Shown here in pieces: positions 41,847-58,909 of a stretch of DNA of 64,000 bases. The stretch covers positions 29,436 through 93,435 of the forward strand of contig CAIZVZ010000006.1 in NCBI GenBank assembly GCA_903936565.1, read 5' to 3'. The position numbers were made by a program, and so were the translations under genes. The notes beneath the pieces were generated by a model. It saw nothing but the letters and a program-made list of their open reading frames with translations, did no database searches and was not told the origin of the DNA. The stretch is from an uncultured bacterium (GTDB lineage Bacteria > Patescibacteriota > Minisyncoccia > Phycocordibacterales > CAIZLB01). Position 1 is the first letter of the stretch, and each line of letters begins with the position of its first letter.

Positions 41847-44066
41847 ATGCCCGAAAAACCAAAACCAATTAACCTCAAATTCACAGAATATCCACTTTCA
41901 TCAGTAATTAGAATTAATCCTGATCAGATTTCACATCTCAAAAAATTAAACCTATTCACAATCGGTGACATACTGAGGCACTACCCCATACGATATGGTG
42001 GTGCATCAGAAGCGCAATACATCAATCAATTAACAGTAGGACAAAACGCCACAGTCTATGGAAGAATTGGAAAATTAAAGACTGGAAAAAGTTTTAAAAG
42101 CCATACCGCAATGGCAGAAGGAGTTATCTCAGATGACACGGGAAATCTAAAAGTAGTTTGGCTTCATCAACCATATATCGCAAAATTAATTCAAGAAGGC
42201 AGTCTGGTAAAGGCAACAGGTAAAGTAACCAAGCGTGGCGATTATGTTGGAATGTTAAATCCAGAAATAGAATCAGTTGGTGTTATGCCAAATCAAATTG
42301 GTCACAATCTCTTTGCCGGAACAGAAGCACCAATAGAACACTTCTCTCCCGTTTATCCAGAAACAAAAGGCGTGACCTCAAAATGGATTTATCACACACT
42401 TCAAAGAATATTTAAGAATCCCTTATTTGAAACAATAGAAGATCCAATTCCGGGGGATATATTAAAAAAATATAATCTCCCCTCTCTAAAGAGTGCGTTA
42501 ATTTGGATTCACACTCCACAAAAAGAAACTGACGCTCAGGTGGCAAGAAAAAGATTTTCATTTGAAGAAGTTTTTTATATTCAAATCAAGAATCAACAAG
42601 CCAGAGCCTCCGCTCAAAAAGAAAAAGCTTACGTGATTGAGCCCTCTTCCAAGAGCTTGAAAGAATTCACAGACAGATTCCCTTTTGCAATGACTTCTTC
42701 GCAAAAAAAATCAACAGATGACATCTTGAGTGATTTCCAAAAAGGTACACCAATGTCTCGTCTCCTTGAGGGAGATGTGGGATCAGGAAAGACTGCCGTC
42801 GCTGCAACTACAGCATATGGTGTCGTGACAACAAGACCTAAGAACAAAAATTCAAAGGTGCAGGATTATGGTAATTTACAAGTCGCATACATGGCACCAA
42901 CTGAAATCCTCGCCAAACAACACTTTGAATCATTTATTCAATATTTTAAACACATGCCAATTTCTATTGGCTTCATAAGCGGAACGGGGTGTAGAAAATT
43001 TCCATCAAAGGTACAGAATCGCGGGGCGGATGGTAACAGCGGTTGGACCGATATTTCAAGATCACAATTATTAAAATGGGTAGAGAGTGGTGAAATTGCA
43101 ATCTTAATTGGAACACACGCCTTAATTCAAAAGTCCGTAAAATTCAAAGACCTAGCGTATGTCATCATCGACGAGCAGCATAGATTCGGAACCGCACAAA
43201 GACAAAAGCTTGCACGCAAACATGACATCGTCCCCCACCTCCTATCAATGACGGCAACACCGATTCCAAGAACCTTAGCACTCACTCTTTATGGTGATCT
43301 AGACCTCTCACTAATCGATCAAATGCCAACAGGAAGAAAACCTATCATTACAGAAATTATTACAGAACCAAAACGGGAAGCTACATATGAGAAAATTAGA
43401 AAGGAATTAAAAGACGGCAGACAAGTTTATGTAATTTGCCCAAGAATCGAGGAAGCTGATCCAGACAAAGAACAAGCGCTCAATGTTAAGTCAGTAGTGG
43501 AGGAAGCAAAGAGATTAAAAGAAAGTGTTTTTAAAGATTGGAATATCGATATATTACACAGCAAGATGAAGCCAAAGGAAAAGGATGCGATTATGATGCA
43601 ATTTGAAAAGAAAGAAATTGATATTCTTGTTGCCACAAGTGTTGTTGAGGTTGGAGTAAATGTTCCAAACGCAACAATAATTTTAATTGAAGGTGCTGAG
43701 CGGTTTGGATTGTCACAGCTTCATCAATTACGCGGACGTGTAATTAGAAGTAATCATCAAGCGTATTGTTATGTCCTTAGCGATAGCAAGAGCAGTAAGA
43801 CAGTTGAGCGACTTAAAGCATTGAATACCGCAAAGAACGGTTTTGAATTATCCGAAATGGATTTGAAATTGCGTGGCGCTGGGGAACTGTATGGTGGCAA
43901 GCAATGGGGTATTACAGATATCGGAATGGAAGCAATCAAAAATATAAAAATGGTAGAGGCCGCACGCAATGAAGCCCAAATTATTGTTAAAGAAGATCAA
44001 ACACTAAGCTCATTCCCTATTTTGAAAGAGATGATGGATACGAAGAGAGAAATACATTTTGAATAA
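41847..44066 (+). CDS. recG: ATP-dependent DNA helicase RecG
   Basis: N-terminal wedge/OB domain, helicase motif I GDVGSGKTAVA, DEQH box (IIDEQHRFG), motif VI QLRGRVIRS; 739 aa. Confidence 0.85.
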   Translation: MPEKPKPINLKFTEYPLSSVIRINPDQISHLKKLNLFTIGDILRHYPIRYGGASEAQYINQLTVGQNATVYGRIGKLKTGKSFKSHTAMAEGVISDDTGNLKVVWLHQPYIAKLIQEGSLVKATGKVTKRGDYVGMLNPEIESVGVMPNQIGHNLFAGTEAPIEHFSPVYPETKGVTSKWIYHTLQRIFKNPLFETIEDPIPGDILKKYNLPSLKSALIWIHTPQKETDAQVARKRFSFEEVFYIQIKNQQARASAQKEKAYVIEPSSKSLKEFTDRFPFAMTSSQKKSTDDILSDFQKGTPMSRLLEGDVGSGKTAVAATTAYGVVTTRPKNKNSKVQDYGNLQVAYMAPTEILAKQHFESFIQYFKHMPISIGFISGTGCRKFPSKVQNRGADGNSGWTDISRSQLLKWVESGEIAILIGTHALIQKSVKFKDLAYVIIDEQHRFGTAQRQKLARKHDIVPHLLSMTATPIPRTLALTLYGDLDLSLIDQMPTGRKPIITEIITEPKREATYEKIRKELKDGRQVYVICPRIEEADPDKEQALNVKSVVEEAKRLKESVFKDWNIDILHSKMKPKEKDAIMMQFEKKEIDILVATSVVEVGVNVPNATIILIEGAERFGLSQLHQLRGRVIRSNHQAYCYVLSDSKSSKTVERLKALNTAKNGFELSEMDLKLRGAGELYGGKQWGITDIGMEAIKNIKMVEAARNEAQIIVKEDQTLSSFPILKEMMDTKREIHFE

Positions 44067-44120
44067 AGCAGGAAACCGGCCCGCGCGTACGCGGACCGGT
44101 GTTTGTTTGATTCGTCTGAA

Positions 44121-44645
44121 TCAGTCCCTGATGACAATGTCTGGCTGTGGACCATCATCATCCAGAAATGCGGCTGAAGCCGTCGATCTCCTTGCCGACA
44201 GGCAGGCTGGTTGCATCGAGTACATTGTGGCGCCACGGATCATCCTTCTGGCGCGCCTTTTCCATCCGTCGAGGGCGACAAGCTTTGGGGCATCAATGAG
44301 AAAGTCCAAATCATTTTCCACATCACCTCGGTTATCAATGATCCGTCGGATCTGGATAACTGAGGGGTCTCCAATGCGACCCTCCCTAGAAAACCCGACA
44401 TCGTGGCAGATCCTTTCGTAACTTGCCTTCGATATAGGGTAATCAATCTCATTGATACGCAGGGCATAACCATAGCCCCCAAACACCCTCACTCCAGACA
44501 GCGAGCATATGAAGCTCGGCTTATCTTCTACTTTCTTTTCTGGCGGTTTACTTCTTTTCATTGTGTGCAGGTTGGTTGAATAATCAGAGATGAAAGAAAA
44601 ATGGTGACCACCACCATTCTCAGTCTGTACAACATAATGACACAT
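44121..44645 (-). CDS. Hypothetical protein in a GC-rich (about 52 percent) islet adjacent to the tRNA with the UAU anticodon
   Basis: ORF boundaries coincide with the compositional island 44060-44650; no recognisable domain. Confidence 0.35.
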   Translation of the reverse strand: MCHYVVQTENGGGHHFSFISDYSTNLHTMKRSKPPEKKVEDKPSFICSLSGVRVFGGYGYALRINEIDYPISKASYERICHDVGFSREGRIGDPSVIQIRRIIDNRGDVENDLDFLIDAPKLVALDGWKRRARRMIRGATMYSMQPACLSARRSTASAAFLDDDGPQPDIVIRD

Positions 44646-44714
44646 TCTTTTACAAAATGCAAATTAAGATTTTACTTGTGCACCCCCCCAATCGAAGAAA
44701 AAGTATTATTTCTG

Positions 44715-44787
44715 TGCGAGCACTAGGATTCGAACCTAGGACCGGTCGTGTATAAGACGACTGCTCTACCAACTGAGCTATGCTCGC
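44715..44787 (-). tRNA. tRNA with UAU anticodon (would decode AUA, Ile)
   Basis: GCGAGCATAGCTCAGTTGGTAGAGCA-GTCGT-CTTATAC-ACGAC-CGGTC-CTAGGTTCGAATCCTAG-TGCTCGC-A; U33 and A37 are in place. Confidence 0.7.
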
Positions 44788-44875
44788 ATGAGCCCCATAT
44801 TACACCAGTTTTAATTTTTAGAAAAGGGCATATGAGGCGAGACAAACCGACCACCCCGACAATCACAAACTGAGC

Positions 44876-47014
44876 CTAGATAACCTCCGACTTCTTCTTT
44901 GGCACAATTCCATTCGCAACTAATATTGCATCGAACTCCGCTTGTTCCAATGTTTCCTTATCAATCAAAGCAATAGAAATTGCATCCAAGACCTTGCGCT
45001 TCTCTGTAATAACATCGAGTGCAATTTTATATGAATCATTCATAATCTTTGAAATTTCTTGATCAATTATAGCGCCAGTTGAAGCAGAATATTCCTGCTC
45101 CCCCACACCTCTACCTGACATTGCGCGTCCATTTCCTTCAAGTGCAATAGGACCAATCTTATCTGACATACCATATTTAGTAACCATGTCGCGCGCTAAG
45201 GCTGAAGCAACTTGCAAATCATTTGATGAGCCAGTGGTTAATTCATCGAAGATATGTTTCTCAACAACATATCCTCCAAGAGATACAACAATGTCATCCA
45301 AAAATTCCTTTTTGGATTGCAACTTCTTGTCTTCAATCGGAAGCTTCATGGTGTAACCCGCCGCACGTCCACGAGAAATAATTGAAACTTTATGAACTGG
45401 ATCAGCATGAGGAAGAACTGAGGCAAGAAGGGCGTGTCCCGCTTCATGATATGCAGTCAATTCCTTTTCTTTCTTTCCAAGTAAATGACTCTTTCTCTCA
45501 GGGCCTAACAATACTTTTTCAATTGATCTGATTAGATCGTATTGTGCAACCTTCTTTCTATCTTCTCTTGCGGCAAGAATAGCAGCTTCATTAACCAGTG
45601 AGTGAAGATCAGCACCAGATAGCCCTGGAGTACGAGATGCAATAACATCTAAATTGACATCCTCTGCTAGTGGCTTGTTTTTTGTATGCACCTCAAGAAT
45701 TGCAAACCTATCCTTTCTATCAGGTAGATCAATTACAACTCTTCTATCAAATCTTCCGGGACGAAGAAGTGCAGGATCCAATACGTCAGGTCTGTTTGTG
45801 GCAGCCATCATAATAACTTTTTCATTTGGTTCAAAACCATCCATCTCAACAAGAATTTGATTCAGTGTTTGTTCACGCTCATCATTTCCTCCACCAAAAC
45901 CAGTTCCTCTAACACGTCCAACCGCATCAATTTCATCGATAAAAATAATTGCGGGGGCTGAAGATTTTGCAAGCTTAAACAAATCACGAACACGTGACGC
46001 ACCAACTCCGACAAACATTTCAACGAACTCAGCACCTGATACTGAAAAGAATGCAACGCCAGCCTCTCCCGCAACAGCACGAGCAAGCAATGTTTTTCCA
46101 GTTCCCGGAGCACCAGTTAGCAATATCCCCTTTGGAATTCTTGCGCCAATATTAATAAACTTCTCAGGGTTCTTTAGGAAGTCCACAATTTCAGCAAGTT
46201 CTTGCTTTGCCTCCTTTGCACCAGCGACATCTTTGAATGTAACTTTTGTTTTTGTATCATCAGGAGAAATCATACGAGCCCTAGTTTGACCAAAGCTCAT
46301 CGCCTGCATATTTGCGCTTCTCGCCTGTCTGGACAGGTACCAGATTATAAAAATCAAGAATAGAATTGGTAGCGCAAATGGGAGAATGTTATTAACCCAG
46401 AACCACGCACCTCTGTCGTCCTTATTTTCAATTTTAACTTGTGCCAATTTTGCAGGATCAACGCCGAGATTTTTCAAAGAGTCTGAAAGAGAACTCTGCG
46501 CCTCCTTTTGTGTAGTCTTTTTCAAAACACCAGCGGGACTTGAAGAAGCGGAAGATGTGGCAGAAGACTTAACAACAGCGAGTGCCGTTGAAGATGACGA
46601 CAATAGAGAGGATGATGTTGCCGATCCGGGCACCGACACTTCCGACGAAGTAGAAAATGCTCCGTCTAGATATTCTATATCCACCTTATCCCCTGAAACC
46701 TCAACCTTCGCTACCCTACCAGCATTAATATCAACTGCTAATTCAGAAAGACTTATTTCTTTTATTGGAGTTGGGCTGGTGTAAAATAGAACGTAAATAC
46801 TTATGATTGCTACAAATATTAGAAATGTTGCAAAAAAATTATTTAGAATCAAAGCACCAACACCCTGCTGCTTTTTTGGAATCTTGGGCATTTTAGAACC
46901 CATTTGCTCTTTTGGTGTCTTATGATGCGTGTGTGGTTTATCTTTTGGCTCGTTTTTAGCCATATCTTCAACCTCCTTTTCCTCGATATTTGGAATATTA
47001 TTGTCTTTAGTCAT
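44876..47014 (-). CDS. ftsH: ATP-dependent zinc metalloprotease FtsH
   Basis: Walker [30 protein letters not shown] zinc motif, two N-terminal TM segments with a Ser-rich periplasmic loop. Start at MTKDNN is likely (the track extends to 47044). Confidence 0.9.
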
Positions 47015-47159
47015 GTGGGCAAAGTATACACAAATAATGAGCAAAATAAAAGTTTTTTCTAATGAAAGTCAACGAACATGGCCCCGAATATAACATTAAC
47101 CATCAAAAGCACCGAAGAATAACAATATATTGACGAAAGTGAAAAAATGTGCGAAACTA

Positions 47160-47600
47160 TGTGTCCCTTAGGTGGGTATTTAGGCCGGAGCGCCAGATCC
47201 GTACGGAATTAAATCCCTACAAATTCCAAAGTCTAAATACGACGATCCAACTATAACCGAGATTGCCCAGCCGTGCACACTTGCTTTTGACGCCGTCAGC
47301 CAAGTTAACTCGATCATAGAATGACACAATTTGTCATTTGGACCGATCAAAAAAGAAGGGTTATGTGTGATCCGGCCAAGTGCCAGACACCTAACACATA
47401 TTGTCACCAGAGGAACAGGTGACAGACGCAACTAGTTCCAAAACTAGGGTAACTCGGTGCAAGTGCCACCGTAACAAATTAACCAGCGTTTAAGGTCGAC
47501 GAAGACCACACTTCTAGCCCGACTCACGACAAGGTGAGCGGGCTATCCTTTTGGCTTTTTTTCTTGTACTCACGTACACCACCCTACCACCCTACTTCTG
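47160..47600 (+). ncRNA. Unassigned candidate structured ncRNA (about 440 nt, GC about 50 percent) ending in a strong intrinsic terminator
   Basis: ORF-free GC-rich block between divergent ftsH and smpB. Hairpins include atgaca-caatt-tgtcat and tgtcacc-agaggaaca-ggtgaca. Terminal hairpin agcccgactcac-gacaag-gtgagcgggct followed by ttttggcttttttt (47550-47600). No RNase P, SRP or tmRNA consensus recognised. Confidence 0.3.
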
Positions 47601-47647
47601 CGCAATTCCATAATTGTAAAAAAAGATATATACTAAGAAAAATAAAG

Positions 47648-48103
47648 ATGACCATAAAGACCCTCGTAAAAAATCAAAAAGTTTTCTTTAACTATGAAAT
47701 AACGGATAAATATAACGCCGGTATTGAGCTTTTTGGGTACGAAGTAAAAGCAATTCAAAAAGGTCTCGGTAATATGGAAGGGTCGTATATCGTCATAAGA
47801 GGTGGGGAGGCGTTTTTAATAGGGCTAGATCTTCCACCATATCAGCAAAAAAACACTCCCACAGAATACGATTCAAAGAGAAATAGAAGGTTATTATTAA
47901 ACAAAAAAGAGCTCATAGAGTTGGCAGAAAAGGAGAAAGAGAAAGGCTTGACTATCGTGCCAATAGCGTTGTACAATAACGGTCGCAGAATCAAGCTAGA
48001 GCTTGGTATTGCAAAGGGAAAGAAGAAATTTGATAAGCGTCAGAATATCAAAAAAAGAGAGAGTGATAAGGAAATCAACCGCGCACTCAAAGGCGGAAGG
48101 TAA
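47648..48103 (+). CDS. smpB: SsrA-binding protein SmpB
   Basis: IAQNKKAFFNYEI-like N-terminus (KNQKVFFNYEITDKYNAGIELFGYEVKAIQ), LPPYQQ, C-terminal basic tail GKKKFDKRQ. Internal Met start chosen. Confidence 0.85.
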   Translation: MTIKTLVKNQKVFFNYEITDKYNAGIELFGYEVKAIQKGLGNMEGSYIVIRGGEAFLIGLDLPPYQQKNTPTEYDSKRNRRLLLNKKELIELAEKEKEKGLTIVPIALYNNGRRIKLELGIAKGKKKFDKRQNIKKRESDKEINRALKGGR

Positions 48104-48173
48104 TCTATACCCTCTTGTGATAAGATATAGACGCCTTCAATAGACGGCTCAGAATTTTGACAACAATAAATAT

Positions 48174-48568
48174 GGGGATGACATGCTTTGACACATGACT
48201 GGATTTTTTATGTGCGTAACCGAGTGCCCGAGAATCTCGTTAAACTTCCGGAACCCTTAGATGCAAAAGCCCAAAAAGCAGTCGCTTCTCCATTCTTTGG
48301 AGTAAACGACTTTGCATTTGCAACAGCTAGAGCCTAGCTCGCTATTGCAACGTTCTTACCTACTCTTTTTGCAAGTAGGATAAGGGCGCAATAATTGCAA
48401 AATAGATTTACAGAAATCTTAGACTGTAAATTAAAACAAATAAGATCGACGACGTTGTGTTTTGATAATTTTATAGCACCGCCGTTTAAAAACAAAAAAA
48501 ATCATCTACGCTACGTAGACTCATAAAGAAACATCGTGTGCACGCGGGTTCAATTCCCGCCATCTCCA
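48174..48568 (+). ncRNA. ssrA: tmRNA (ssrA)
   Basis: 5-prime GGGGATG pairs with 3-prime CATCTCC, including a G3-U70 wobble pair. T-arm GCGGGTTCAATTCCCGC, discriminator A. Internal candidate tag frame ending at UAG 48335-48337 (...NDFAFATARA). Located immediately downstream of smpB. Confidence 0.8.
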
Positions 48569-48583
48569 CATCAATAAAAATAG

Positions 48584-48619
48584 GACCGCCGAACGAAAGT
48601 GAGGTGGTTTTATTTTTGT
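48584..48619 (+). terminator. Intrinsic terminator after tmRNA
   Basis: gaccgcc-gaacgaaagtga-ggtggtt with G-U pairs, then ttttatttttg. Confidence 0.5.
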
Positions 48620-48751
48620 TGAATAGTGGAGTATCAGCCGGGAATTGAAAGGCGGACTGAAGTTCTGCAATGAGCCGTCAGACATGACGGCGAAGCAGAA
48701 CGAAGGAGCCGGGGTCGCGCAAAAAATTGAGAAGCAATTTTTATGCGTGAC

Positions 48752-48765
48752 CAATTCCCGCCATC
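48752..48765 (+). repeat. 14-nt exact (about 20 nt imperfect) direct repeat of the tmRNA 3-prime end, 187 bp downstream of ssrA. Read as an att-site-like scar
   Basis: caattcccgccatc at 48551-48564 and again at 48752-48765. Confidence 0.55.
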
Positions 48766-48906
48766 ACGTAATTTACCTTGACACATAGGCCTGTCTGTAT
48801 TATTGTTTGCGTGAATAAAGTTCCCTGCCCCCCCCCGTTGTGTTTAGAATCGAGCCTGTGGACAAATCGCGGGCCTGCTCTAACCACAACCCCAGAATAT
48901 CAGACC

Positions 48907-49374
48907 ATGTACGTTGCATATAATCCAAAATCGTTAGTTCAACCCATAAGCGCCAAAACCGGAGTGGACGCCCTGGAAAGCATCGCTGCTTTCTTCAAAG
49001 AACTTCTCAGACTCCGTGCTGAGGGGAAGCATTCAGAAATCGAAGGTCACATCGACTTGGATAAACCCGAGTTTCGTGATGCCTGGACGAACCCCCACGG
49101 TAGCAAACTTCGACTCTTCACCCTTACACGAAATGTCGATCACGCAACTCATCTCTCCGGATGGGCATTCAGATGCTGGGCGCGACCGTATGCGAAGGTT
49201 ACGGTGGATGACCACTTCGAAACCATCGATTTGGGAGCCTTGCTGTTTGAAGTCCGTAGCGATGAATATCAAATTCTTCTACAGTGGGCCCAAAGACACT
49301 TCACGGATGACTTGTATCCATGGGAATGCAACCTTCACAGTAGAAAAAGCATCCTGTGGCTCGGAGAAGGCTAA
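48907..49374 (+). CDS. Hypothetical 155-aa protein in a GC-rich (about 52 percent) islet immediately 3-prime of ssrA and its duplicated end
   Basis: Start MYVAYNPKSL chosen (track start 48778); followed by a GC hairpin terminator. Confidence 0.4.
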   Translation: MYVAYNPKSLVQPISAKTGVDALESIAAFFKELLRLRAEGKHSEIEGHIDLDKPEFRDAWTNPHGSKLRLFTLTRNVDHATHLSGWAFRCWARPYAKVTVDDHFETIDLGALLFEVRSDEYQILLQWAQRHFTDDLYPWECNLHSRKSILWLGEG

Positions 49375-49407
49375 CAACTTCATTTCTTCATCACCCCGAA
49401 CCCGAGG

Positions 49408-49436
49408 CACCCCGCCCGCAAGGTCGGGGTGTTCTT
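49408..49436 (+). terminator. Intrinsic terminator (caccccg-cccgcaaggt-cggggtg, then ttctt)
   Basis: Seen directly; marks the right edge of the GC-rich islet. Confidence 0.5.
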
Positions 49437-49464
49437 ATAAGTAAATAATTTGGGATACCACAAA

Positions 49465-50100
49465 TTAAAATATTTCCTTCAAATCCACCAGGCCACCTAT
49501 AACCTTCCAAGCATCTTCTTCAATATGCGATCCTTTAAAAGTAATACCTCTTCCCGTCGCCTTAAACATTTCTATGTCATTATCCCCATCCCCAATACAT
49601 GCACATTCATCCAAACCAATTCCCATCTTTTCAGCAACATCCTCCAAGAGTTTAAGTTTACCAAAAGCATTATCGCCAGTATTTATTATATTCACAAGAC
49701 AATCGTTATCATCAAAAACAAAAGTACTATTTGCTTCAAATAAATCTATACCCAATTCCTCGGCAATCATGTTAACCAATATATCAATAGAACCTGATAT
49801 TAAACCTATTTTATAATCCTTGTCCTTAAGATAAGCTATAACTTCCTGTACTCCTCTACGGTAAGAATATTTACTTAAGGCGACAGTAATGTGCTGGCGA
49901 GTCGCCTTTCCACTTGCCTTATATTTCTCTAATAAAATATTGTTCCACTCGTCATAAGATATTTCTTTATTTTTATATTGATGAAATAGCACCTCGTCGT
50001 CTTCTTTGCTAATACCTAAAGCCAAATTAAGTTCATACCAGCTATTTTCTTTAATAAGGGTTTTATCTAGATCAAAACAAATTAATTTTACATCACTCAT
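49465..50100 (-). CDS. HAD-superfamily hydrolase, SerB-like (phosphoserine phosphatase family)
   Basis: Motif I FDLDKTL, motif IV GDGDNDIEM; internal Met start at 50100 chosen. Confidence 0.7.
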   Translation of the reverse strand: MSDVKLICFDLDKTLIKENSWYELNLALGISKEDDEVLFHQYKNKEISYDEWNNILLEKYKASGKATRQHITVALSKYSYRRGVQEVIAYLKDKDYKIGLISGSIDILVNMIAEELGIDLFEANSTFVFDDNDCLVNIINTGDNAFGKLKLLEDVAEKMGIGLDECACIGDGDNDIEMFKATGRGITFKGSHIEEDAWKVIGGLVDLKEIF

Positions 50101-50135
50101 CGTGTAATTAGTATACACAATCCAACAAGTAGGCA

Positions 50136-50840
50136 CTACCTCCCCCTCAACCACCCGTTCAAATCAAAAAACTTCTCCCCATCCAAAAGATCAAAAACCA
50201 ATCTCAGTGTATCATTCACAATCTTCGTCACCCCCTTGTCTTTAATAACCAAAGCAAACTTAGCCCTTGGATTAGCTAATAATAAAAAGTTTTCCGTAGA
50301 CATTATCTCCCCCGGAGCAATAAAACTATCATTAGAAAAAATCTTCAACCCCTGAGATCTTCCAATATGAGACTTGATCATATCCTTATTCAACTTATCA
50401 AAATGACCCAATGCCTTTTTATTTGAAATTCCCTTCATGACAATTCCCCTCCTTTTAAATACCCTATGTGCTTCTTTAATAAAAAGCGTGGGCAAGTTAT
50501 CAAACTCGCTTTTTGCAGCATCACTACCTTGAATAGATAATATCGTCGTTTGTTTAGGAAGATTCAAAAGCTGATTATATGCCTGCACAATTTCCTTATC
50601 CTTATAAACCCTATAATGGTTTTTATTATGATCATTTTTATAAACAGGTTGCCAGATTGACTTCCTCCCTTCAATATTTTTCTTAACCAAGCCAGAATCA
50701 GAAAGACGCCCCAGACGATATTGAATGGTAGTCCTCAGAACTCCAAGTCTCCTGGATATTTCTGAAGGATACATAGGCTCAGTACCTATAATTTTTAAAA
50801 TTTTACTATCCAAGCTATCTATTCCGATCATGATTAACAA
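50136..50840 (-). CDS. TrmB-like winged-helix transcriptional regulator (paralog A)
   Basis: N-terminal HTH LDSKILKIIGTEPMYPSEISRRLGVLRTTIQYRLGRLSDSGLV. Confidence 0.5.
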   Translation of the reverse strand: MLIMIGIDSLDSKILKIIGTEPMYPSEISRRLGVLRTTIQYRLGRLSDSGLVKKNIEGRKSIWQPVYKNDHNKNHYRVYKDKEIVQAYNQLLNLPKQTTILSIQGSDAAKSEFDNLPTLFIKEAHRVFKRRGIVMKGISNKKALGHFDKLNKDMIKSHIGRSQGLKIFSNDSFIAPGEIMSTENFLLLANPRAKFALVIKDKGVTKIVNDTLRLVFDLLDGEKFFDLNGWLRGR

Positions 50841-50956
50841 TGATACTTATTGACAAATATTTTGTCAATACAATCCATGATAAGCCAATAAATACAGTAC
50901 CATGATCATGTCTATTGATTTTCATACGATTATATACATCAAGATGATTTAATCTA

Positions 50957-52288
50957 ATGCATATGAATAACATAGCGATTACATACTTAGCTGCGTATTT
51001 GGTAATACTGGCCATTATTACTTGGCGGTCAGCAAAAAGAGAAACTCCCGCTGATTATATCAATAGCGGCAAGAACTTATCCGCAAACGATTCAACGTGG
51101 ACCACCTTCGCTTCTCTATTAACTGGCTACAATTTTGTAATAGGTGTTACATTTTCATTCTTGTATGGCTTTTGGTATTTAATGGTATTTGTCGGAGCCG
51201 GAATGGCATTTGTTGTTTTATATCTATTTTACAAGAAACACCTACTCCCTCTTCAAAGAGATCATGATCTATTTTCCATCGGAGATTATTTTGGTTTAAA
51301 GTATGGGTCGTTAAGCAAGAAACTAATTAATTTAATTTTATGCGGTGGACTTATATTATTTCTAATTCTTCAAATGTTTGTAAACACAACGCTTTTCTCA
51401 GCACTACTTCATATTGAAAAGCTGACAGCATTAATTATTACCACAGGCGTAGTCTGTATATACCTATGGTTTGGCGGGTTTAAAGCCTCAGTCAAAACAG
51501 ATATCTTTCAAGGTCTTTTAATGTTGCCGATAATTATGACAATTTTCGTTTTTCCTGTGCATTTTACATTAGGAAAAATTCCGCAGGCTTTTGACCCCTC
51601 ACAATTTTGGTTTGCCATAGGTTTAATGTTATTGCAGTTTTTGAGCCTGCTTGGACAAGCGGAAAGTTTTCAAAGAATATTTGCAAGTAGAGATGTGGAA
51701 TCTCTAAAGAAAGGTTTGGGAAGAGCATTCATTCTTCTTGCACTAGTCGCCGGATCAATCGCTTATCTTGGAATAAATTTTAAATTTTCAGGTCTAATAA
51801 GCGACCCTTCAGATTTATTTACCAAAGGAGTTCTGACTGCATTACCTTCATGGCTTGGACCATTATTAACCATTTCACTCATTGCATCTTTTATGGGAAC
51901 GATAGACTCAAGCGCTTTTGCATTCGGTGTTCTTGTCGCAAAAATGAGAGGAGCAAAAGAAAAATCAATCATAAAATCAACCAGGCTTTTTACTCTTCTC
52001 GGTATAATTGTCTCTGCAATTTCATCACTATATCTATTCTCATTCTTGTCCTCTGTGTTTGCACTAATATCATTAATATCAGTTGTGGGTGCGACGCTTG
52101 TAGTTTCAATTACACTCAGACCAAGCACATTTGAAATTAATACATTTCTAATTGTTGGTTCCGTCATTTTTATAGTTGGTTTGATTTTAAAATTCGTAAC
52201 TGACAATCCCTTAACGTCATTGATTCCAAGTGGAGCTGCCCTTTTAGCCATGTTGTTAGTTCGAGCATACGTGAGTTTTAAAAGATGA
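50957..52288 (+). CDS. Sodium:solute symporter family (SSS) transporter
   Basis: About 13 TM segments; N-terminal RSAKRETPADYINSGKNLS pattern typical of SSS. Confidence 0.6.
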   Translation: MHMNNIAITYLAAYLVILAIITWRSAKRETPADYINSGKNLSANDSTWTTFASLLTGYNFVIGVTFSFLYGFWYLMVFVGAGMAFVVLYLFYKKHLLPLQRDHDLFSIGDYFGLKYGSLSKKLINLILCGGLILFLILQMFVNTTLFSALLHIEKLTALIITTGVVCIYLWFGGFKASVKTDIFQGLLMLPIIMTIFVFPVHFTLGKIPQAFDPSQFWFAIGLMLLQFLSLLGQAESFQRIFASRDVESLKKGLGRAFILLALVAGSIAYLGINFKFSGLISDPSDLFTKGVLTALPSWLGPLLTISLIASFMGTIDSSAFAFGVLVAKMRGAKEKSIIKSTRLFTLLGIIVSAISSLYLFSFLSSVFALISLISVVGATLVVSITLRPSTFEINTFLIVGSVIFIVGLILKFVTDNPLTSLIPSGAALLAMLLVRAYVSFKR

Positions 52289-52614
52289 ATCTAGCTAGGC
52301 AGTCAGTCAAACCACGGCGCATAGTTATATTGACTTTTAGGCCTATTGATGTTATTGTATATTTAGCAAGTTCCCGATCAGGAGTTGTGTTTGGAATAAG
52401 GCCTGTGAATAAATCGTTGGCCCTATCTACAACACACACCCCTGAATTCATGAGAAATTACCAGTATGTCTTTCTAGGAATGTCGGCGCAAGCCTTCTGT
52501 ACCGCAATCTGGCTAGTGAAAGGAACCACACCAGTAAGTGTCGGCCAACAGCTATTCCTCGCAGCTTTGTTTGGCATCGTCGCCATCATCATTCGCAAAT
52601 GGAAACGGAACTAA
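52285..52614 (+). CDS. Small hypothetical membrane protein overlapping the SSS stop by 4 bp
   Basis: 109 aa, C-terminal TM helix LFLAALFGIVAIIIRKW; somewhat GC-richer than its flanks. Confidence 0.3.
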   Translation: MNLARQSVKPRRIVILTFRPIDVIVYLASSRSGVVFGIRPVNKSLALSTTHTPEFMRNYQYVFLGMSAQAFCTAIWLVKGTTPVSVGQQLFLAALFGIVAIIIRKWKRN

Positions 52615-52619
52615 CCCAA

Positions 52620-52666
52620 GACCCTCACGAGATCGACCTTCAACAGGCCTCGCGAGGGTCTTTCTC
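52620..52666. terminator. Bidirectional intrinsic terminator (gaccctcacgag ... ctcgcgagggtc)
   Basis: 12-bp inverted repeat with one G-U pair, T-run on the plus side; sits between convergent genes. Confidence 0.55.
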
Positions 52667-52683
52667 ATTTCTATATAATTTAA

Positions 52684-53796
52684 CTACTTCACCTCCACGA
52701 ACTTCCCATCCTTAATTGCCTTCAACATCAACTCCTTATACATTCCAACTCCCCTACTATCAACAGACAAACTTCCATTTGCTCCCTGATAATTATTCAA
52801 GCTTGCCAATTTATTTCTCACACAATCTTTATTTTCATATCCGCAAACGGCAATTGAATCTTTCAAGATGTTAAATGCATCGTACACGTTTGCAGATGTT
52901 AGATCTGCATCTACTCCATATTTATTTTTATATTTCAAAGCATAGTCTTGCCCTGCATCATTAGCTAATTTATCCTTAGGATAAGCATAGATAATTCCTT
53001 CAGCTAATTTATAATCCGTAATAGGCCCTTGTATAGCGTGAATACCAAATTTTGGTAGATTGTTAACACCCTGAACATTCATTTCTTTCAAAATATTATT
53101 GAAGTCTCCACCATGTGCAACAATCATTAAAGAATCAGGATTAGATTCCTTAATTTTCAAGACAGAAGTCTTAAAATCACCCAACCCCTTAACTACTGCC
53201 TCATCAGCTACAATAGTTCCTCCATTATCTTTGAAGTATTTTACAAAGTGTTTATAGTTTTCATCTTCAAACGCACCTTGCATGTGAATAATACCTACTC
53301 GTTTAAAATTCTTGGATTGCATATTTGAAGTAATGTCCTTCATTAAGTATTCAATTTCAGGAGAGAAAGTAAAATGATTTGGACCCATGTTTGCGATACG
53401 ATTAGATGGCAGACCAATAGAAATTGACATCACACCGTTATCCTCAAATAATGTCTCAGTTGAAATAGAAGCCTCATTACACATCGGCCCTATTATATAA
53501 TTTACCTTGTCCACCGTAATCAATTTTTGAACTGCACTAATTCCACTAGAACCGTTACATTTATCGTCCTCTTTAATTATCTTATAATTAGATCTTTCAC
53601 TTTGTGGCACACCCTCTAAAGCGAGGTTCAATCCATTTTGCATATAGTCACCAAATGAAGCGGCTGGACCAGAAAACGGACCCACCACGCCAATTTTTAT
53701 AACATTACTATCATTGTTGCTGTTATTATTAAAATAGACTAGCACGCCTACAATCACTATAATCGCCAAAACTATATATTTATATTGTATTTTCAT
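52684..53796 (-). CDS. Periplasmic-binding-protein type I solute-binding protein (LivJ/Peripla_BP_6-like), membrane-anchored, orphan
   Basis: TM anchor, then IKIGVVGPFSGPAASFGDYMQNGLNLAL. Confidence 0.65.
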   Translation of the reverse strand: MKIQYKYIVLAIIVIVGVLVYFNNNSNNDSNVIKIGVVGPFSGPAASFGDYMQNGLNLALEGVPQSERSNYKIIKEDDKCNGSSGISAVQKLITVDKVNYIIGPMCNEASISTETLFEDNGVMSISIGLPSNRIANMGPNHFTFSPEIEYLMKDITSNMQSKNFKRVGIIHMQGAFEDENYKHFVKYFKDNGGTIVADEAVVKGLGDFKTSVLKIKESNPDSLMIVAHGGDFNNILKEMNVQGVNNLPKFGIHAIQGPITDYKLAEGIIYAYPKDKLANDAGQDYALKYKNKYGVDADLTSANVYDAFNILKDSIAVCGYENKDCVRNKLASLNNYQGANGSLSVDSRGVGMYKELMLKAIKDGKFVEVK

Positions 53797-53926
53797 AACA
53801 ACAGAATAATATCAGGTTGTCCAGTGTTTGTCTCATGTTTATAACTAATAGTGACAAGATTATTAATACATGCTATATTATAAGGGTATTTTAATAGCTT
53901 AATGTAGTCCAAAATATGAACTTTAT

Positions 53927-54664
53927 ATGAAAATTGAAAACATACTCACCAAATACGGATTAACAGAACATGAGACACTTATATATATTTGTCTCCTTAA
54001 ACACGTTGAGGCAACCGCTTTTACGCTAGCAAAGGAAACTCATATCCCCCGGGCGACAACCTACAGAATTTTAGACTCGTTAAAAGAAATGAAAATGGTC
54101 TCTGTTTGGAAGAAGAATAACATTTCATACTTCAGTGCGGAAAGCCCCAATCGCCTACTCAAACTTTTGGATGAGAAAAAGGAGATGCTTAATTCCATAT
54201 TACCGGAGATGATGAATTTAAGGCAAATAGACAGCCTTACCCCCGCCACAAGAATATATGAAGGAAAGGAAGGCTTGAAAATTGTTTGGGACGATATATT
54301 AGATACCGCTGAGAAACAGGGGCTACGAGAAATTCATGCGATCTCAGGTCTCGATGTTTTGAAATATCTTCCAAGATACTTTCCGGAATGGTTAAAAAGA
54401 AGAGAAAAACTCGGTGTCTTCAGCTATGTGATCACAAAAGAGACCAATCCATCAACAGATTCCACCCTAGTAAAAAATCGCCTCAGAGAAACTAGAGTGA
54501 TGCCGATGGGGCTCATGGGTAATGGAACAATAGATATTTATGGAAACAAGGTTGCCTTCTTCTCCCTAAAGGACGGCCAAATATATTCTATAATATTGGA
54601 GTCCCCTTCTATTGCCGAGTTCCTTAGAAATTTCTTTATTTCAACTTGGGGCTTACTGAAATAA
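53927..54664 (+). CDS. TrmB-family transcriptional regulator (paralog B)
   Basis: ILTKYGLTEHETLIYICLLKHVEATAFTLAKETHIPRATTYRILDSLKEMKMV. Confidence 0.6.
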   Translation: MKIENILTKYGLTEHETLIYICLLKHVEATAFTLAKETHIPRATTYRILDSLKEMKMVSVWKKNNISYFSAESPNRLLKLLDEKKEMLNSILPEMMNLRQIDSLTPATRIYEGKEGLKIVWDDILDTAEKQGLREIHAISGLDVLKYLPRYFPEWLKRREKLGVFSYVITKETNPSTDSTLVKNRLRETRVMPMGLMGNGTIDIYGNKVAFFSLKDGQIYSIILESPSIAEFLRNFFISTWGLLK

Positions 54665-54724
54665 ATTTCAGAGAATAATATCCCAACAAAAAAACCACCC
54701 ATGTGGTTTTTTGTTTCCTATCTT

Positions 54725-55444
54725 CTACTTTTTAACCGCAATCATTACCGAATCCATCCATTGTCTATAGACCGTAGAAATACTTTCGTAATTATTTTGT
54801 ATTAACAGCCTAGATTGTTCAGATTCAGTAAATCTAACCTTTTCATCCTCAGCATAGTGCTTAATCCATTCCTCCTTGACGTCAGATCTTCCAATCTGAA
54901 CGAAAGCCTCAAATGTATTTATGGTATTCTCTATATATTCCTTCTGCAAAGGACCATCATCAACGGTACATTTGTCGCCATTCACAAAGATACCTCCTTT
55001 TTTTGTAACTCTAGCAATCTCTTTGAATAGTTCGTTTCTCTTCTCTATACTGAAGTTGTGTATTACATATCCTGAGAAGACCACATCGAAGTAATTGTCA
55101 TCAATGGATTTAAGATAATCCATTATCTCTGATTCTATAAAATCTATTTGCGATATATTCTGAAACCTTTTCTTTAAAGCCTCGAGCATTTTAGTTTCAT
55201 TATCAACTGCATAAATTTTATAATTATCCATTTTCACATCATCACAGGCTTGCAGTACGAAAGCTGTAGTTATTCCTGATCCAATACCAATTTCTAACAT
55301 TCGCACCTCTTCAGCTGATTTGATATTTTTAACTATAGTGTTAGCCACAGCTAGTTCTAAATCATCATAATACCAGAGTGCTTTCTTTAATAGGTCATAT
55401 TCCTCTCCACCTAACAGCCCTGAAAATCTTTGATCATTGTTCAT
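54725..55444 (-). CDS. Class I SAM-dependent methyltransferase
   Basis: Motif I LEIGIGSGITT, acidic post-I residue; 239 aa. Confidence 0.65.
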   Translation of the reverse strand: MNNDQRFSGLLGGEEYDLLKKALWYYDDLELAVANTIVKNIKSAEEVRMLEIGIGSGITTAFVLQACDDVKMDNYKIYAVDNETKMLEALKKRFQNISQIDFIESEIMDYLKSIDDNYFDVVFSGYVIHNFSIEKRNELFKEIARVTKKGGIFVNGDKCTVDDGPLQKEYIENTINTFEAFVQIGRSDVKEEWIKHYAEDEKVRFTESEQSRLLIQNNYESISTVYRQWMDSVMIAVKK

Positions 55445-55450
55445 GTTGTT

Positions 55451-56554
55451 TTATTTAATCTTATAAGGCTTATTGTCCTTTATTCCCATCAGTGCAAACT
55501 CTTTTGTAAATCCTCCCTTACCGTCTGATTTAAGATCTCCAGATTGACCCTTGTACTCAGTTATTGTGTGTATGTATTCCTGAATCTTTGTAGTATCTAA
55601 TCCGTTTGTGTTCTTAATCCCCTGAGCTATTAGCATGACTGAATCGTACGCTGTATCTGCACCACCCTCAATTTCTATTCCATACTCCTTTTTATATCTC
55701 TCTTCGAAATCTTTATTTGGAGTTAGGCCACTTAGGTATATCCAGCCATCACAAGACCCTTCACAAGTTGAGATAGTCTGTTTATCCATCGTCACCCCGT
55801 ATACGGGTAGTTTGATACCAATTTCCCTCATCTGTCTTCCGTATACAGAAGTTATGCTATACCCATCGGATGTTATGGCGATAGCATCAACTCCGGGAGT
55901 ATTCTTTAGTTTCAGTAAATCAGTTCTTACATCGGTTGAACTAACTAGTGGTTCATTTATGAAAATCGCATGACCGCCAAGTTGTTCTATTTTATTCTTG
56001 ATTGTAATAGTTTGATCTTTTACCCAAGGATCCTGTGCACCTAGGATGGCAATATTTTTATGACCATCCTTTATCATCATTTCTGCCAACTTCTCCGATA
56101 GTATATAGTCATGAGTATATGTATTGAAGATGTATGGGCTAGCTTCATTAAAAGCTGCGACACCCAGAGTTGGTGATATAACGACTGTATCCTTCACCAA
56201 GTCTTTTATGGCTAAACCATTTTTTGTCCAAGTTGGACCTATAATAAACTTTATACCTTCAGCATCCGTCAGTTTTCTGAAGGCGGTTACCGTTTTTGCT
56301 GGATCTCCTTGATCGTCTTCAACAACAGCTTCTAGTTTCTTTCCAAGAAGTCCTCCTTGATTGTTTATGTCCTTAATTGCTAAGTTCATACCGTTTACGG
56401 TAGCCTCACCCAAGGACGCCCCGTCACCGGACATTATCAAGACAGCTCCTATTTTAATGATCTTTTGATCATTACCGCTTTTCACATTTACGATACCAAT
56501 TATTAATAATATTGTTATAAGTATTGCTACTATGGTTGTTTTTTTGTTTTTCAT
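55451..56554 (-). CDS. Periplasmic-binding-protein type I solute-binding protein (second paralog), orphan
   Basis: TM anchor, then IKIGAVLIMSGDGASLGEATVNGMNLAIKDIN. Confidence 0.65.
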   Translation of the reverse strand: MKNKKTTIVAILITILLIIGIVNVKSGNDQKIIKIGAVLIMSGDGASLGEATVNGMNLAIKDINNQGGLLGKKLEAVVEDDQGDPAKTVTAFRKLTDAEGIKFIIGPTWTKNGLAIKDLVKDTVVISPTLGVAAFNEASPYIFNTYTHDYILSEKLAEMMIKDGHKNIAILGAQDPWVKDQTITIKNKIEQLGGHAIFINEPLVSSTDVRTDLLKLKNTPGVDAIAITSDGYSITSVYGRQMREIGIKLPVYGVTMDKQTISTCEGSCDGWIYLSGLTPNKDFEERYKKEYGIEIEGGADTAYDSVMLIAQGIKNTNGLDTTKIQEYIHTITEYKGQSGDLKSDGKGGFTKEFALMGIKDNKPYKIK

Positions 56555-56689
56555 AGTACTAATATCGTATATTTTTGACAGAGTTATTCAAAAGTGCTCT
56601 GAATTTCTTATCGAAAATATCCCATTTAGCCCTTATTTACAGTGCTATATATCTGTTGACAATACTCCGACAAAATGTATAATTAAACC

Positions 56690-57454
56690 ATGCAAATTTC
56701 AAAACTAAAAGAACTAGGATTTACAGACAAAGAAGTAGAGGTGTATGTTACCCTCTTGGAACAGGGGCGTCTAAACCCCTCCAGAATCGCCCTATCTAAC
56801 GGCATCAAAAGACCAACTGTATACGGAATTCTTAAGGAGCTTATAAAAAAGGGGGTAGTAGTAGAAGAAACCAGACAAGGTAAGCGGCTCTTCTCTGCCC
56901 TACCAGTCAAAAGTCTTGGCGATATAATTCTAAAAGAAGAAAGAGAGTTGCAATACAAGAAAACGTTGGTAAATCAAGCTATTGAGGAACTTGAATCTCT
57001 AAGTCTTAAAACAAAAAAGTCTATCCCCCGAATAACATATATATATGAAGAAAACATAGAGAACTTTTTATACAAACAAGCTTCAGCTTGGAACGAAAGT
57101 ATCTTGCAAAGAGATGGCTCATGGTGGGGATTCCAAGATCCAGAGGTTCTAAAAAAATATGGAGAATGGATTGATTGGTATTGGAAAGAAGAAAACACCC
57201 CCAAACAGGTGGTATTAAGACTTCTAACAAGTCAGTCGGAGTTTGAAAAAAGGATGGCAGCCAGAGGCTACAACAGAAGATTGATTAAGTTCTGGAATGG
57301 AGGACAAGATATTGATACTACGACTTGGGTAATAGGTGACTATGTAATCATTGTAGCCACAGGTCAGAAACCATATTATCTCGTCCAAATACACGATGAG
57401 GTGTTGGCAAAAAACATGAGAGAGATGTTTAAATATATATGGGAGACTCAATAG
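56690..57454 (+). CDS. TrmB-family transcriptional regulator (paralog C)
   Basis: LKELGFTDKEVEVYVTLLEQGRLNPSRIALSNGIKRPTVYGILKELIKKGVV. Confidence 0.6.
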   Translation: MQISKLKELGFTDKEVEVYVTLLEQGRLNPSRIALSNGIKRPTVYGILKELIKKGVVVEETRQGKRLFSALPVKSLGDIILKEERELQYKKTLVNQAIEELESLSLKTKKSIPRITYIYEENIENFLYKQASAWNESILQRDGSWWGFQDPEVLKKYGEWIDWYWKEENTPKQVVLRLLTSQSEFEKRMAARGYNRRLIKFWNGGQDIDTTTWVIGDYVIIVATGQKPYYLVQIHDEVLAKNMREMFKYIWETQ

Positions 57455-57601
57455 AGCTTTATTTATTGTCCACGCAGGAGATATCGAATGCCTAATTGCG
57501 ATGTATTGACAGGTACACAAAACGTGTTAATCTATCACCAGAGTTCCAAAAAACAACAAAACACAGGCACTCTTCTAATTCTGTAACCCCAAAACACGCA
57601 C

Positions 57602-58249
57602 ATGAGCAAAGAACTGACTGAATTCGAATTAATGGTTGCTACACAACTGAAGCAACTGGATAGACACCGAGACACAACCGAAGCTGCGGCAAGACAGACC
57701 ATTGTTGGCCAACAACGGTGGGGACAATGGGAATCGTTGGCGGAAATCTCTGCCGACACCATTCTTCAGTTGTCCGCCGAAGCCGGCGGGACCATGGTTG
57801 ATATGGTCTTGTGGGCTGACGAAAATGGCTACAAGGGAATCCTGGTGGACGTTGCCACCACCCTAGCTACTGGTGTCAGACCAATCGCCACCGCAAAATC
57901 AACCGAGATTGGTGAAGTCACAGGAAGTGTGCCTTTGGTAAAAACCCCAGAAGCAGCACTGCCTGAGTTCCAAATCAATGACGGCTACCTAGCAAAGGCA
58001 TTCCAGTTATCAACAACAGCCTCTAGTCTGGCGCAGCAAGGGCGGTTGTATGAGTCTCTCAACTGCTTCAGGACAAGTCTCACATACTTGTTCCTGGCCA
58101 AGGTACCAACCAACATCGAGAAGAGGAAGACGTGGGCCGTTGAAACCATCACGGAAGTGGACTTGATCCTTGCTGGGCTCATCGCCCCCTGTTTCCAGAG
58201 GGCACGCGCAGCGGGAAAACAGCTCATTCTCGTCACTGGGAAGTCCTGA
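57602..58249 (+). CDS. Hypothetical 215-aa protein in a GC-rich (about 52 percent) islet
   Basis: Compositional island 57480-58860. Its own hairpin terminator lies at 58305-58335 (ccccacg...cgtgggg). Confidence 0.4.
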   Translation: MSKELTEFELMVATQLKQLDRHRDTTEAAARQTIVGQQRWGQWESLAEISADTILQLSAEAGGTMVDMVLWADENGYKGILVDVATTLATGVRPIATAKSTEIGEVTGSVPLVKTPEAALPEFQINDGYLAKAFQLSTTASSLAQQGRLYESLNCFRTSLTYLFLAKVPTNIEKRKTWAVETITEVDLILAGLIAPCFQRARAAGKQLILVTGKS

Positions 58250-58538
58250 AAAATACCCACGTCAAGGCACCACTTCCAAACACCTTACCCCCGCATCCTA
58301 TGAGTCCCCCACGAACTCACGGACGTGGGGGATTTCATTTAACCTTAGAAATTTATCCACTTCGACCTAATAGTTATTGAAGTGGTAATTATATCAGACT
58401 TGACTTAAACAACATATAGTGTTATTATATGGAAAGCTAAGTTCCCATTGTGAGGTATGGTTTGATTTAGGATTGTCGTCGCAAATCAAGGCATTCGGCC
58501 TTCGATCGTGACCGCAAACTGAACCAAACCATTACCAA

Positions 58539-58784
58539 ATGAAAAACGCACGACACTTCGTATTCGAACTAAACTCTGCCGGCTCCTTTATGTTTGAGGG
58601 CATCGGTGACGATAAAGAAATCGACCGTGGGCAGCAGGACTACGTGAGAAGATTGGTCGAAGCCGCTCAGCTAGCGGTGGCAGCCTCGGGTAAACCCGTG
58701 GATCACTTCGAGAATGTCATCAGGCTCGCCGAAATTGGCCATATCATCAACTCGCTTTCACCACCAGCAGCAAAGACACCTTGA
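58539..58784 (+). CDS. Hypothetical 81-aa protein in the same GC-rich islet
   Basis: Followed by a hairpin terminator at 58815-58850 (ggacctt...aaggtcc, ttttcattt). Confidence 0.35.
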   Translation: MKNARHFVFELNSAGSFMFEGIGDDKEIDRGQQDYVRRLVEAAQLAVAASGKPVDHFENVIRLAEIGHIINSLSPPAAKTP

Positions 58785-58909
58785 CCCCCCCCGACCTCCG
58801 TGAACTGGACCTTCAACAGTCCTTCTCGCGAAGGTCCTTTTCATTTGAATAATTTATTCTATCATCCTCCAATCATTAGCAATAAACTCCATGATATAAT
58901 ATCCCTACT

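Follow-up and report, generated by a model that had tools for sequence, protein, structure and literature searches.

In the 64,000-nt stretch of contig CAIZVZ010000006.1 analyzed here (the window), from an uncultured freshwater bacterium of the Patescibacteria, the transfer-messenger RNA (tmRNA) gene ssrA is followed by a second, incomplete copy of its own 3′ end and, beyond that copy, by a GC-rich gene for an orphan protein of 155 amino acids (aa), ORF155. The explanation that we regard as rather probable comprises two separate events: an insertion that left a scar at ssrA, and the strain-specific acquisition, outside that scar, of a cassette containing ORF155. The central features of the junction are as follows.

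47648–48103, + strand: smpB (Pfam PF01668 SmpB, E 4e-47)
48174–48571, + strand: ssrA, an intact one-piece tmRNA gene (Rfam RF00023, 118.4 bits, E 1e-45)
48551–48569, + strand: direct repeat copy 1 (attL side), CAATTCCCGCCATCTCCAC, from the third T-loop base to the gene end
48752–48765, + strand: direct repeat copy 2 (attR side), a displaced ssrA 3′ fragment with 14 of the 19 nt and imperfect similarity back to 48745

The RF00023 match covered the full model (positions 1–374), far above the gathering score of 47, and set the gene ends at 48174 and 48571, although ARAGORN did not call a tmRNA in the window. Read directly from the sequence, the 5′ acceptor strand GGGGAUG pairs with CAUCUCC and includes the G3–U70 pair, the T-arm is complete (GCGGG-UUCAAUU-CCCGC), and CCA is not encoded. 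The tag frame (48263–48334), followed by a TAG stop codon at 48335–48337, encodes AKAQKAVASPFFGVNDFAFATARA, whose C-terminus is ARA rather than the commoner LAA. The gene thus has the tRNA-Ala-like acceptor with G3–U70, the T-arm, and the internal tag frame with its stop codon that mark a tmRNA, and it lies directly after smpB. The 3′-terminal 14-mer CAATTCCCGCCATC occurred exactly twice in the 64 kb, at 48551–48564 and 48752–48765, 187 nt apart, and the similarity widened to 21 nt at 86% identity (48544–48564 versus 48745–48765). The first base of the repeat is base 3 of the 7-nt T-loop. Both the tmRNA call of the first-pass annotation, made on the G3–U70 acceptor, the T-arm, and the position after smpB, and its report of a gene end repeated 187 bp downstream were therefore borne out.

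Four close relatives were retrieved with the SmpB protein from species-representative genomes (SmpB identity, 83–99%); they are lake metagenome-assembled genomes, and all genomes compared in this study are metagenome assemblies. More distant SmpB matches and homologues of neighboring genes were named Parcubacteria, Paceibacterota, Nomurabacteria, or Vogelbacteria. In blastn maps, the order recG, tRNA-Ile, ftsH, smpB, and ssrA was collinear, and homology ended at the end of ssrA in every comparison. Where ssrA was 86–99% identical, the junction behind it was found in four states: empty, with a mini-insert, with a mini-insert and a fused cassette, and with a serine-integrase element.

In L003, whose ssrA is 98.7% identical to that of the window, the gene is directly followed by a trailer of approximately 115 nt (AAAATTAAGGAACGAGGG...) that ends in a terminator. 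L004 and two metagenome contigs found by metagenome scan, L028 and L029, share another order, namely ssrA, a terminator hairpin, a conserved module, a perfect 19-nt copy of the repeat, and then the native trailer that directly follows ssrA in L003; ssrA of the window is 86–90% identical to those of L004 and L029. The trailer after the second repeat of L004 was 92% identical to the trailer after ssrA of L003. Since the same trailer stands directly behind ssrA in one genome and behind the second repeat in the others, L003 is a precise empty site. In L001 and its longer versions L031 and L032 (ssrA also 98.7% identical to that of the window), ssrA is abutted by a reverse-strand open reading frame (ORF) of a serine recombinase of approximately 510–590 aa with Resolvase, Recombinase, and Zn_ribbon_recom domains (− strand; 6705–8471 in L001 and 10001–11767 in L031 and L032), which runs into the 3′ end of ssrA. 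This recombinase-bearing element differs from the mini-insert and occupies the same junction. The presence of an empty site, a repeat-flanked insert, and a serine recombinase at one junction among relatives supports the view that ssrA is an active and much-used integration hotspot in this lineage, as the first-pass annotation had proposed and for which it had suggested the comparison of relatives carried out here.

These comparisons also bear on an origin of the repeat without any mobile element, either as a chance match or through replication slippage or tandem duplication at the site. The insert is short and contains no gene, as such an origin would allow. However, the composition-based expectation for an exact 14-mer repeat is 3e-6 within 1 kb and 4e-4 for the whole window on both strands, and the intervening DNA is no copy of ssrA. 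Moreover, the same insert with perfect 19-nt repeats is found in three further assemblies, and a relative has the precise empty site. We therefore consider this origin very improbable.

It is even less credible that the segment from the T-loop to the second copy represents a small intron in the tmRNA T-loop, like the group I introns of some tmRNA genes. The second copy indeed starts in the T-loop, which is a known intron site of tmRNA (PMC13011429), and a group I intron is present elsewhere in the window. Nevertheless, the gene is already complete with copy 1, behind which stands a strong terminator, the 5′ strand of the T-stem ahead of the second copy is degenerate (GCGTG), and no match to Intron_gpI was obtained at E values up to 5 in 43900–49600. 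With the first gene copy uninterrupted and Intron_gpI unmatched, a group I intron in the tmRNA gene was rejected. The group I intron elsewhere in the window is a separate observation: Rfam matched it at 2193–2406 on the − strand (56.7 bits), beside tRNA-Met and tRNA-Asp, and it is probably inserted in a tRNA gene missed by ARAGORN, like the group I introns inside tRNA genes described for Patescibacteria (PMC13011429).

In the frame of the 19-nt repeats, the insert is the 182 bp between the two copies (48570–48751). It contained no credible gene, its ORFs being short mechanical ones of no more than 77 aa, and consists of the following parts, the last of which extends into copy 2 of the repeat.

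48570–48622, + strand: insert-borne replacement terminator of ssrA, a long hairpin followed by a T-run (−27.6 kcal/mol, z score −9.0)
48626–48647, + strand: GTGGAGTATCAGCCGGGAATTG, the left-hand inverted repeat of the module, which matches the 3′ end of ssrA imperfectly and in inverted orientation
48638–48765, + strand: fold-back module of 128 nt, conserved, which forms a three-way junction with 44 base pairs and has repeat copy 2 in its closing stem

The terminator segment (approximately 53 nt, next to the regenerated gene end) also forms a hairpin terminator in the relatives, yet it was only 44–47% identical. In the module, CGGGAAUUG of the closing stem pairs with CAAUUCCCG of the repeat, and the bases to the left, GTGGAG in the window and GTGGTAGGT or CTGGTAGGT in other lineages, pair with ATCTCCAC; in each of the four copies, the fold joins the left inverted repeat to CAATTCCCG...CTCCAC. 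The module is thus bounded by inverted repeats, and the end of ssrA itself serves as one of them.

On the basis of this geometry, a gene-less segment of approximately 182 bp would have entered the 3′ end of ssrA by site-specific recombination, with a crossover region beginning in the T-loop. The insert would have brought along both a terminator and its own version of the final 19 nt of ssrA, so that the essential gene stayed intact, and the original 19-nt end would have been pushed downstream, which would account for both the regenerated target and the displaced fragment. Because the insert has no recombinase, we infer that it is either a miniature element that is non-autonomous or what remains of a larger one and that it depends on an integrase supplied in trans. 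A tblastn search of the window with the integrase of L001 matched only the antisense-ssrA stretch and yielded no serine-integrase homologue, tyrosine integrases not having been searched for. In a second event, a later rearrangement would have removed the native trailer along with the final 5 nt of the displaced copy and joined the scar to a self-contained cassette comprising a promoter, a structured leader, ORF155, and a terminator. The reduction of copy 2 to 14 of 19 nt and the missing trailer point to such a later deletion or insertion.

Several observations weigh against this explanation. Scans of viral and metagenome sequences yielded no full-length parent element carrying the module; a gapped-pattern scan of viral contigs gave no match, and the metagenome scan gave two further ssrA-linked copies (L028 and L029) and one unrelated match (L030, 12 bits). 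The serine-integrase elements found at this junction are probably not the parent of the insert, since the element side of L001 starts with integrase codons rather than with a terminator and since the unintegrated elements L033 and L035, neither of which carried the module, share approximately 8 nt with the ssrA end rather than 19. Phylogenetically, the window is nearer to L003 and L001, which have no insert, than to L004, so that two gains or two losses are required. Finally, the module does not look like decaying junk and is under some constraint: it is 95–96% identical in four lineages whose ssrA genes differ by 7–14% and whose adjacent non-coding DNA is 44–60% identical.

This last point leads to the proposal that the 128-nt module is itself functional and that the duplicated ssrA end is held by selection and is no leftover. 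In one form of this proposal, the module would be a small structured RNA whose closing stem consists of a mimic of the tmRNA 3′ end and its complement; such an RNA could act as a structured decoy of, or as an antisense to, the tmRNA 3′ end. In the other form, it would be a single-strand fold-back attachment site whose stem mimics a double-stranded target, like attP of CTX-phi or attC of integrons, so that the element could carry a hairpin attachment site imitating its own target. The layout at this junction, a direct repeat with an inverted copy approximately 100 nt away, may resemble that of such hairpin attachment sites. All pairwise comparisons of the module among the window, L004, L028, and L029 gave 94.5–96.1% identity, compared with 86–93% for ssrA and 52–60% for the trailer of the same genomes. 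The module folded with z scores of −6.1 on the + strand and −5.7 on the − strand, and two G–U pairs favored the + strand. Of its 10 variable columns, 8 were unpaired (hypergeometric p = 0.0014), and one of the two paired changes was U–A to U–G. The left flank varied by lineage, as given above, and kept its pairing with ATCTCCAC. The high identity relative to the flanks and the avoidance of paired positions by substitutions indicate that the module interior is under some constraint, whether as an RNA, a single-strand attachment site, or a protein-binding site. However, none of the 44 pairs showed a compensatory change among the four sequences, and no conserved promoter was found between the ssrA terminator and the module when the sequences of the window, L004, L028, and L029 were read. 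A covariance model built from the four copies found only those four in 324 kb of collected loci, all at ssrA and within one small clade, and the module had no match in Rfam. In addition, the 3′ arm is truncated in the window, where a function requiring the full stem would be impaired, and L003 and L001 manage without the module. A functional module is thus possible, but we consider it unlikely as the explanation of the duplicated end.

The two-event explanation places ORF155 outside the scar, in a unit designated cassette c1.

48778–48906, + strand: c1 promoter and leader (TTGACA-17-TATTGT at 48778–48806, AGTTCC box at approximately 48819–48824, hairpin at 48837–48890)
48907–49374, + strand: ORF155, orphan protein gene, an open frame of 155 aa
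49392–49431, + strand: c1 terminator, a GC-rich hairpin followed by UUCUU (−22.6 kcal/mol, z score −3.1)

The sigma-70-like promoter matched the consensus at 10 of 12 positions and begins 13 bases after repeat copy 2, and the leader hairpin had z scores of −4.2 to −5.0 with two compensatory pairs. Over 49 nt, the c1 terminator shared 90% identity with one that follows an unrelated ORF in L003 (7679–7727). A search of 5.8 billion clustered proteins returned only self-matches for ORF155, its own cluster consisting of the same protein with different called starts and one frameshifted variant. An exhaustive phmmer search of 1.84 billion representatives found one homologue beyond this cluster, P0007 (45% identity, E 3.6e-17), which is encoded on an unrelated contig with approximately 43% GC (L007) among hypothetical, unannotated neighbors. 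The blocks conserved between the two proteins include FRDxWTNPxG, FRCWxRP, DDHF, and ALLFEVRS, and the existence of this distant homologue with conserved blocks indicates that ORF155 is a real gene. No match was found in Pfam, PHROGs, PADLOC, NCBIfam, or a PDB profile search. An AlphaFold model from the two-sequence alignment was unusable (predicted local distance difference test score, 53), and Foldseek retrieved nothing from PDB below E 0.3.

ORF155 has a GC content of 49%, with 0.51 at third codon positions (GC3) compared with 0.29–0.42 in neighboring genes and a window mean of 37.7% GC, and it is absent from relatives with ssrA 98.7% identical. Its lack of synteny in relatives, its foreign composition, and its single distant homologue support acquisition rather than native descent. 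The first-pass annotation had described a minimal islet at ssrA with a single cargo ORF of roughly 52% GC in a genome of roughly 33% GC. The compositional contrast was real and the figures were wrong; the GC hairpin terminator that it had placed behind the ORF was found, and the synteny across relatives that would have spoken for a native gene was not seen. The homology search that it had recommended for the ORF returned P0007 alone. The geometry of the islet was not supported. An element integrated at a tRNA or tmRNA gene is situated between the regenerated end of the gene and the displaced fragment, and here the repeat-bounded interval contains no ORF, whereas ORF155 lies downstream of the second repeat and outside the interval. 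Nor is it a sole cargo, since it belongs to a set of at least four GC-rich cassettes of this kind within 10.3 kb.

A version of the islet in which the second repeat is the start of a minimal islet integrated at ssrA, with ORF155 as its only cargo, would accommodate the promoter of c1 immediately beyond that repeat as well as the foreign composition of ORF155 and its absence from close relatives, and Dehalococcoides has tandem islands with ssrA repeats between them (PMC3146451). No third repeat closes such an islet, however; searches downstream with up to 2 or 3 mismatches were empty. Equivalent cassettes of L004, L028, and L003 lie beyond the native trailer and its terminator, unjoined to a repeat, and similar cassettes at 52330, 57506, and 58400 of the window are not next to tRNA-like genes. 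We consider this version improbable.

The wider setting of c1 is given by two further entries.

48572–58885, no strand assigned: variable region downstream of ssrA, with no counterpart by blastn synteny in L003 (where the equivalent is 1.4 kb) or L004
52330–52680, 57506–58340, and 58400–58830, + strand: three further cassettes (c2 to c4), with ORFs of 54, 215, and 81 aa

Within these 10.3 kb, c1 to c4 lie among low-GC genes. The pattern TTGAC-N17-TATTAT/TATTGT with AGTTC occurred four times in the window (48778, 52330, 57506, and 58400), always on the + strand and within 48.6–58.9 kb, and each of these promoters precedes a GC-rich ORF (54–215 aa, GC3 0.51–0.57) and a hairpin terminator. The promoter-leader of c1 (approximately 130 nt) is shared with c2 (52330–52452) and with L004 (4891–5016; nhmmer E 1e-31 to 1e-35), where it belongs to a cassette downstream of the trailer with an unrelated ORF. 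The terminators of the cassettes at 52330 and 58400 have a common motif, GACCTTCAACAG. In an all-against-all comparison the cassette ORFs were mutually unrelated, and those of the cassettes at 52330, 57506, and 58400 had no family match. The slot after the trailer is also occupied by a GC-rich ORF in L003, L004, and L028, a different one in each. Self-matches aside, the HAD gene beside c1 (49465–50100) had no homologue closer than 54–56% identity. The missing counterparts in L003 and L004, and HAD gene homologues of no more than 56% identity despite the presence in databases of genomes with 83–99% SmpB identity, support the view that 48572–58885 is an accessory region in which ORF155 is one of several acquired units.

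Other genes of this region include TrmB/helix-turn-helix-type regulators (50136–50840, 53927–54664, and 56690–57454) that are recurrently paired with Peripla_BP_6 genes (52684–53796 and 55451–56554); a further Peripla_BP_6 binding-protein paralogue lies at 62472–63617.

The serine recombinase of the L001 type belongs to a family of more than 2,200 proteins in Parcubacteria. Most of those inspected (P0008–P0018) have a C-terminus reading VEMxGIEPxC, which is an antisense translation of the tmRNA T-arm, so that the last 10–15 residues or so are encoded antisense to that arm; P0008 continues into ssrA for another 77 codons. The L001-type element extends past 11.5 kb, a distance over which L031 showed no second repeat. 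An apparently unintegrated element (L033 and L034) encodes Prim-Pol/AAA_25, a serine integrase (P0017), ParB_N, and a second serine recombinase. In IMG/VR, 20 viral contigs (L008–L027) contained the exact 23-nt tmRNA 3′ end GGTTCAATTCCCGCCATCTCCAC, and for 16 of these Rfam reported a tmRNA gene, which was complete on 14 contigs and interrupted by the contig end on 2. These contigs contain either virus-borne tmRNA genes or host flanks of proviruses and, as most of them carry whole tmRNA genes, they are uninformative regarding a phage attachment site (attP) of the mini-insert.

Upstream of smpB, the gap to ftsH contains a stretch at 47125–47570 (+ strand) that has no ORF, approximately 47% GC, a TTGAC promoter-like start, and a terminal hairpin with a T-run; its fold had a z score of −4.9. 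In an alignment with L001, L002, and L003, compensatory changes occurred at 22 of 76 predicted pairs, compared with 8.7 ± 2.2 in shuffled controls (0 of 500 reached 22) and 3–6 in slid controls. L004 gave only a short partial match (56 nt at 75% identity), and Rfam yielded no match at E values up to 5. This stretch is a candidate for a new structured, covarying RNA of approximately 430 nt, and its interest may exceed that of the ssrA scar.

Between recG and tRNA-Ile(tat), on the − strand, lies a GC-rich ORF of 174 aa (44121–44645) in an interval that is not alignable by blastn among the relatives; tblastn found ORFs at the same site that were 38% identical in L004 and 33% identical in L003. 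Since this ORF is syntenic yet very fast-evolving, high GC content in this genome does not always mean recent acquisition. Another ORF-less and strongly structured stretch (60470–60955, + strand; approximately 50% GC, z score −5.3), with a promoter-like start and a terminator, lies upstream of infC and had no Rfam match at E values up to 1; the equivalent in L003 has the same promoter (CTTGACAA...AGTAGTATTTTGT) and a barely alignable body. At 32918–33005 (+ strand), ARAGORN called a tRNA-Ser with the unusual anticodon ACT that the Rfam tRNA model did not report at its gathering threshold.

Integration at tmRNA genes is a textbook phenomenon, and our literature searches found no description of it in the reduced genomes of Patescibacteria. 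The feature is thus a well-known phenomenon in a lineage for which no description was found, and its unusual parts are the conserved fold-back mini-insert and the reusable cassette modules. The mini-insert is more conserved than is expected of a scar, the GC-rich cassettes reuse regulatory modules with unrelated ORFs, and a large serine recombinase family of Parcubacteria sits exactly at the ssrA junction. We put forward, as a tentative and rather doubtful proposal, that the module is a new miniature integrative element or a new RNA and that, taken with the reused promoter-leader and terminator modules around unrelated GC-rich ORFs at one slot in different genomes, it would amount to a cassette-exchange system downstream of ssrA in Parcubacteria. 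Should the reuse of modules reflect such an exchange, it would be relevant to the ways in which these tiny genomes gain and try out new genes.

Finally, we compared the junction with known systems. Phage morons are promoter-ORF-terminator units of deviant GC content. Cassette c1 similarly has its own promoter, leader, and terminator and a GC content unlike that of its surroundings; morons lie inside prophages, and around c1 no prophage context was seen and PHROGs gave no match. In relatives, its promoter-leader and terminator modules serve unrelated ORFs at this chromosomal slot. Integron attC sites end in RYYYAAC ... GTTRRRY and have an IntI integrase nearby. The leader hairpin (GTTGTGT ... 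CACAAC) has the opposite arrangement of boxes and stands upstream of the ORFs, and attC was rejected as a candidate, IntI having been sought in the ORF list alone.

Islander, from the Williams laboratory, defines an island by the standard signature of integration at tRNA and tmRNA genes, in which the 3′ end of the gene is regenerated by the element while the original end is displaced (PMC4383910); its endpoints are defined as in the ssrA islands of Dehalococcoides, the bounded segment contains an integrase gene, and a related genome has the uninterrupted site. As in such islands, the junction shows a regenerated and intact tmRNA target, a displaced 3′ fragment in direct orientation downstream, a crossover region that starts in the T-loop, and an empty site in a relative. 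It differs in that the bounded segment is only approximately 182 bp with no integrase or cargo gene and in that the displaced fragment is truncated in the window. Remnants that are flanked by attL and attR and have no recombination genes have been described as cis-mobilizable elements (CIMEs; PMC5704250). The segment at ssrA likewise has attachment repeats around DNA with no recombination gene, presumably derived from or mobilized by an autonomous element, although it is far smaller than CIMEs and its interior is a highly conserved fold-back structure rather than decayed cargo.

The islands at ssrA of Dehalococcoides, which include tandem or degraded ones, encode a serine integrase of approximately 540 aa on the reverse strand beside attL, and the integrase gene itself contains the repeat (PMC3146451). 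The window, from another phylum (Parcubacteria-type Patescibacteria), has no such DsiB/CcrB-like integrase; moreover, L031 shows no second repeat over the distance given above, and the unintegrated forms share only the 8 nt or so already mentioned. Nevertheless, the integration site and the repeat length are those of the DsiB islands, and the region downstream of ssrA is plastic in both (PMC3146451). L001, L031, and L032 do show this arrangement, with a reverse-strand serine recombinase beside attL that reads into ssrA, and L033 and L034 carry ParB and a second serine recombinase, as does the integration module of Dehalococcoides (PMC3146451).

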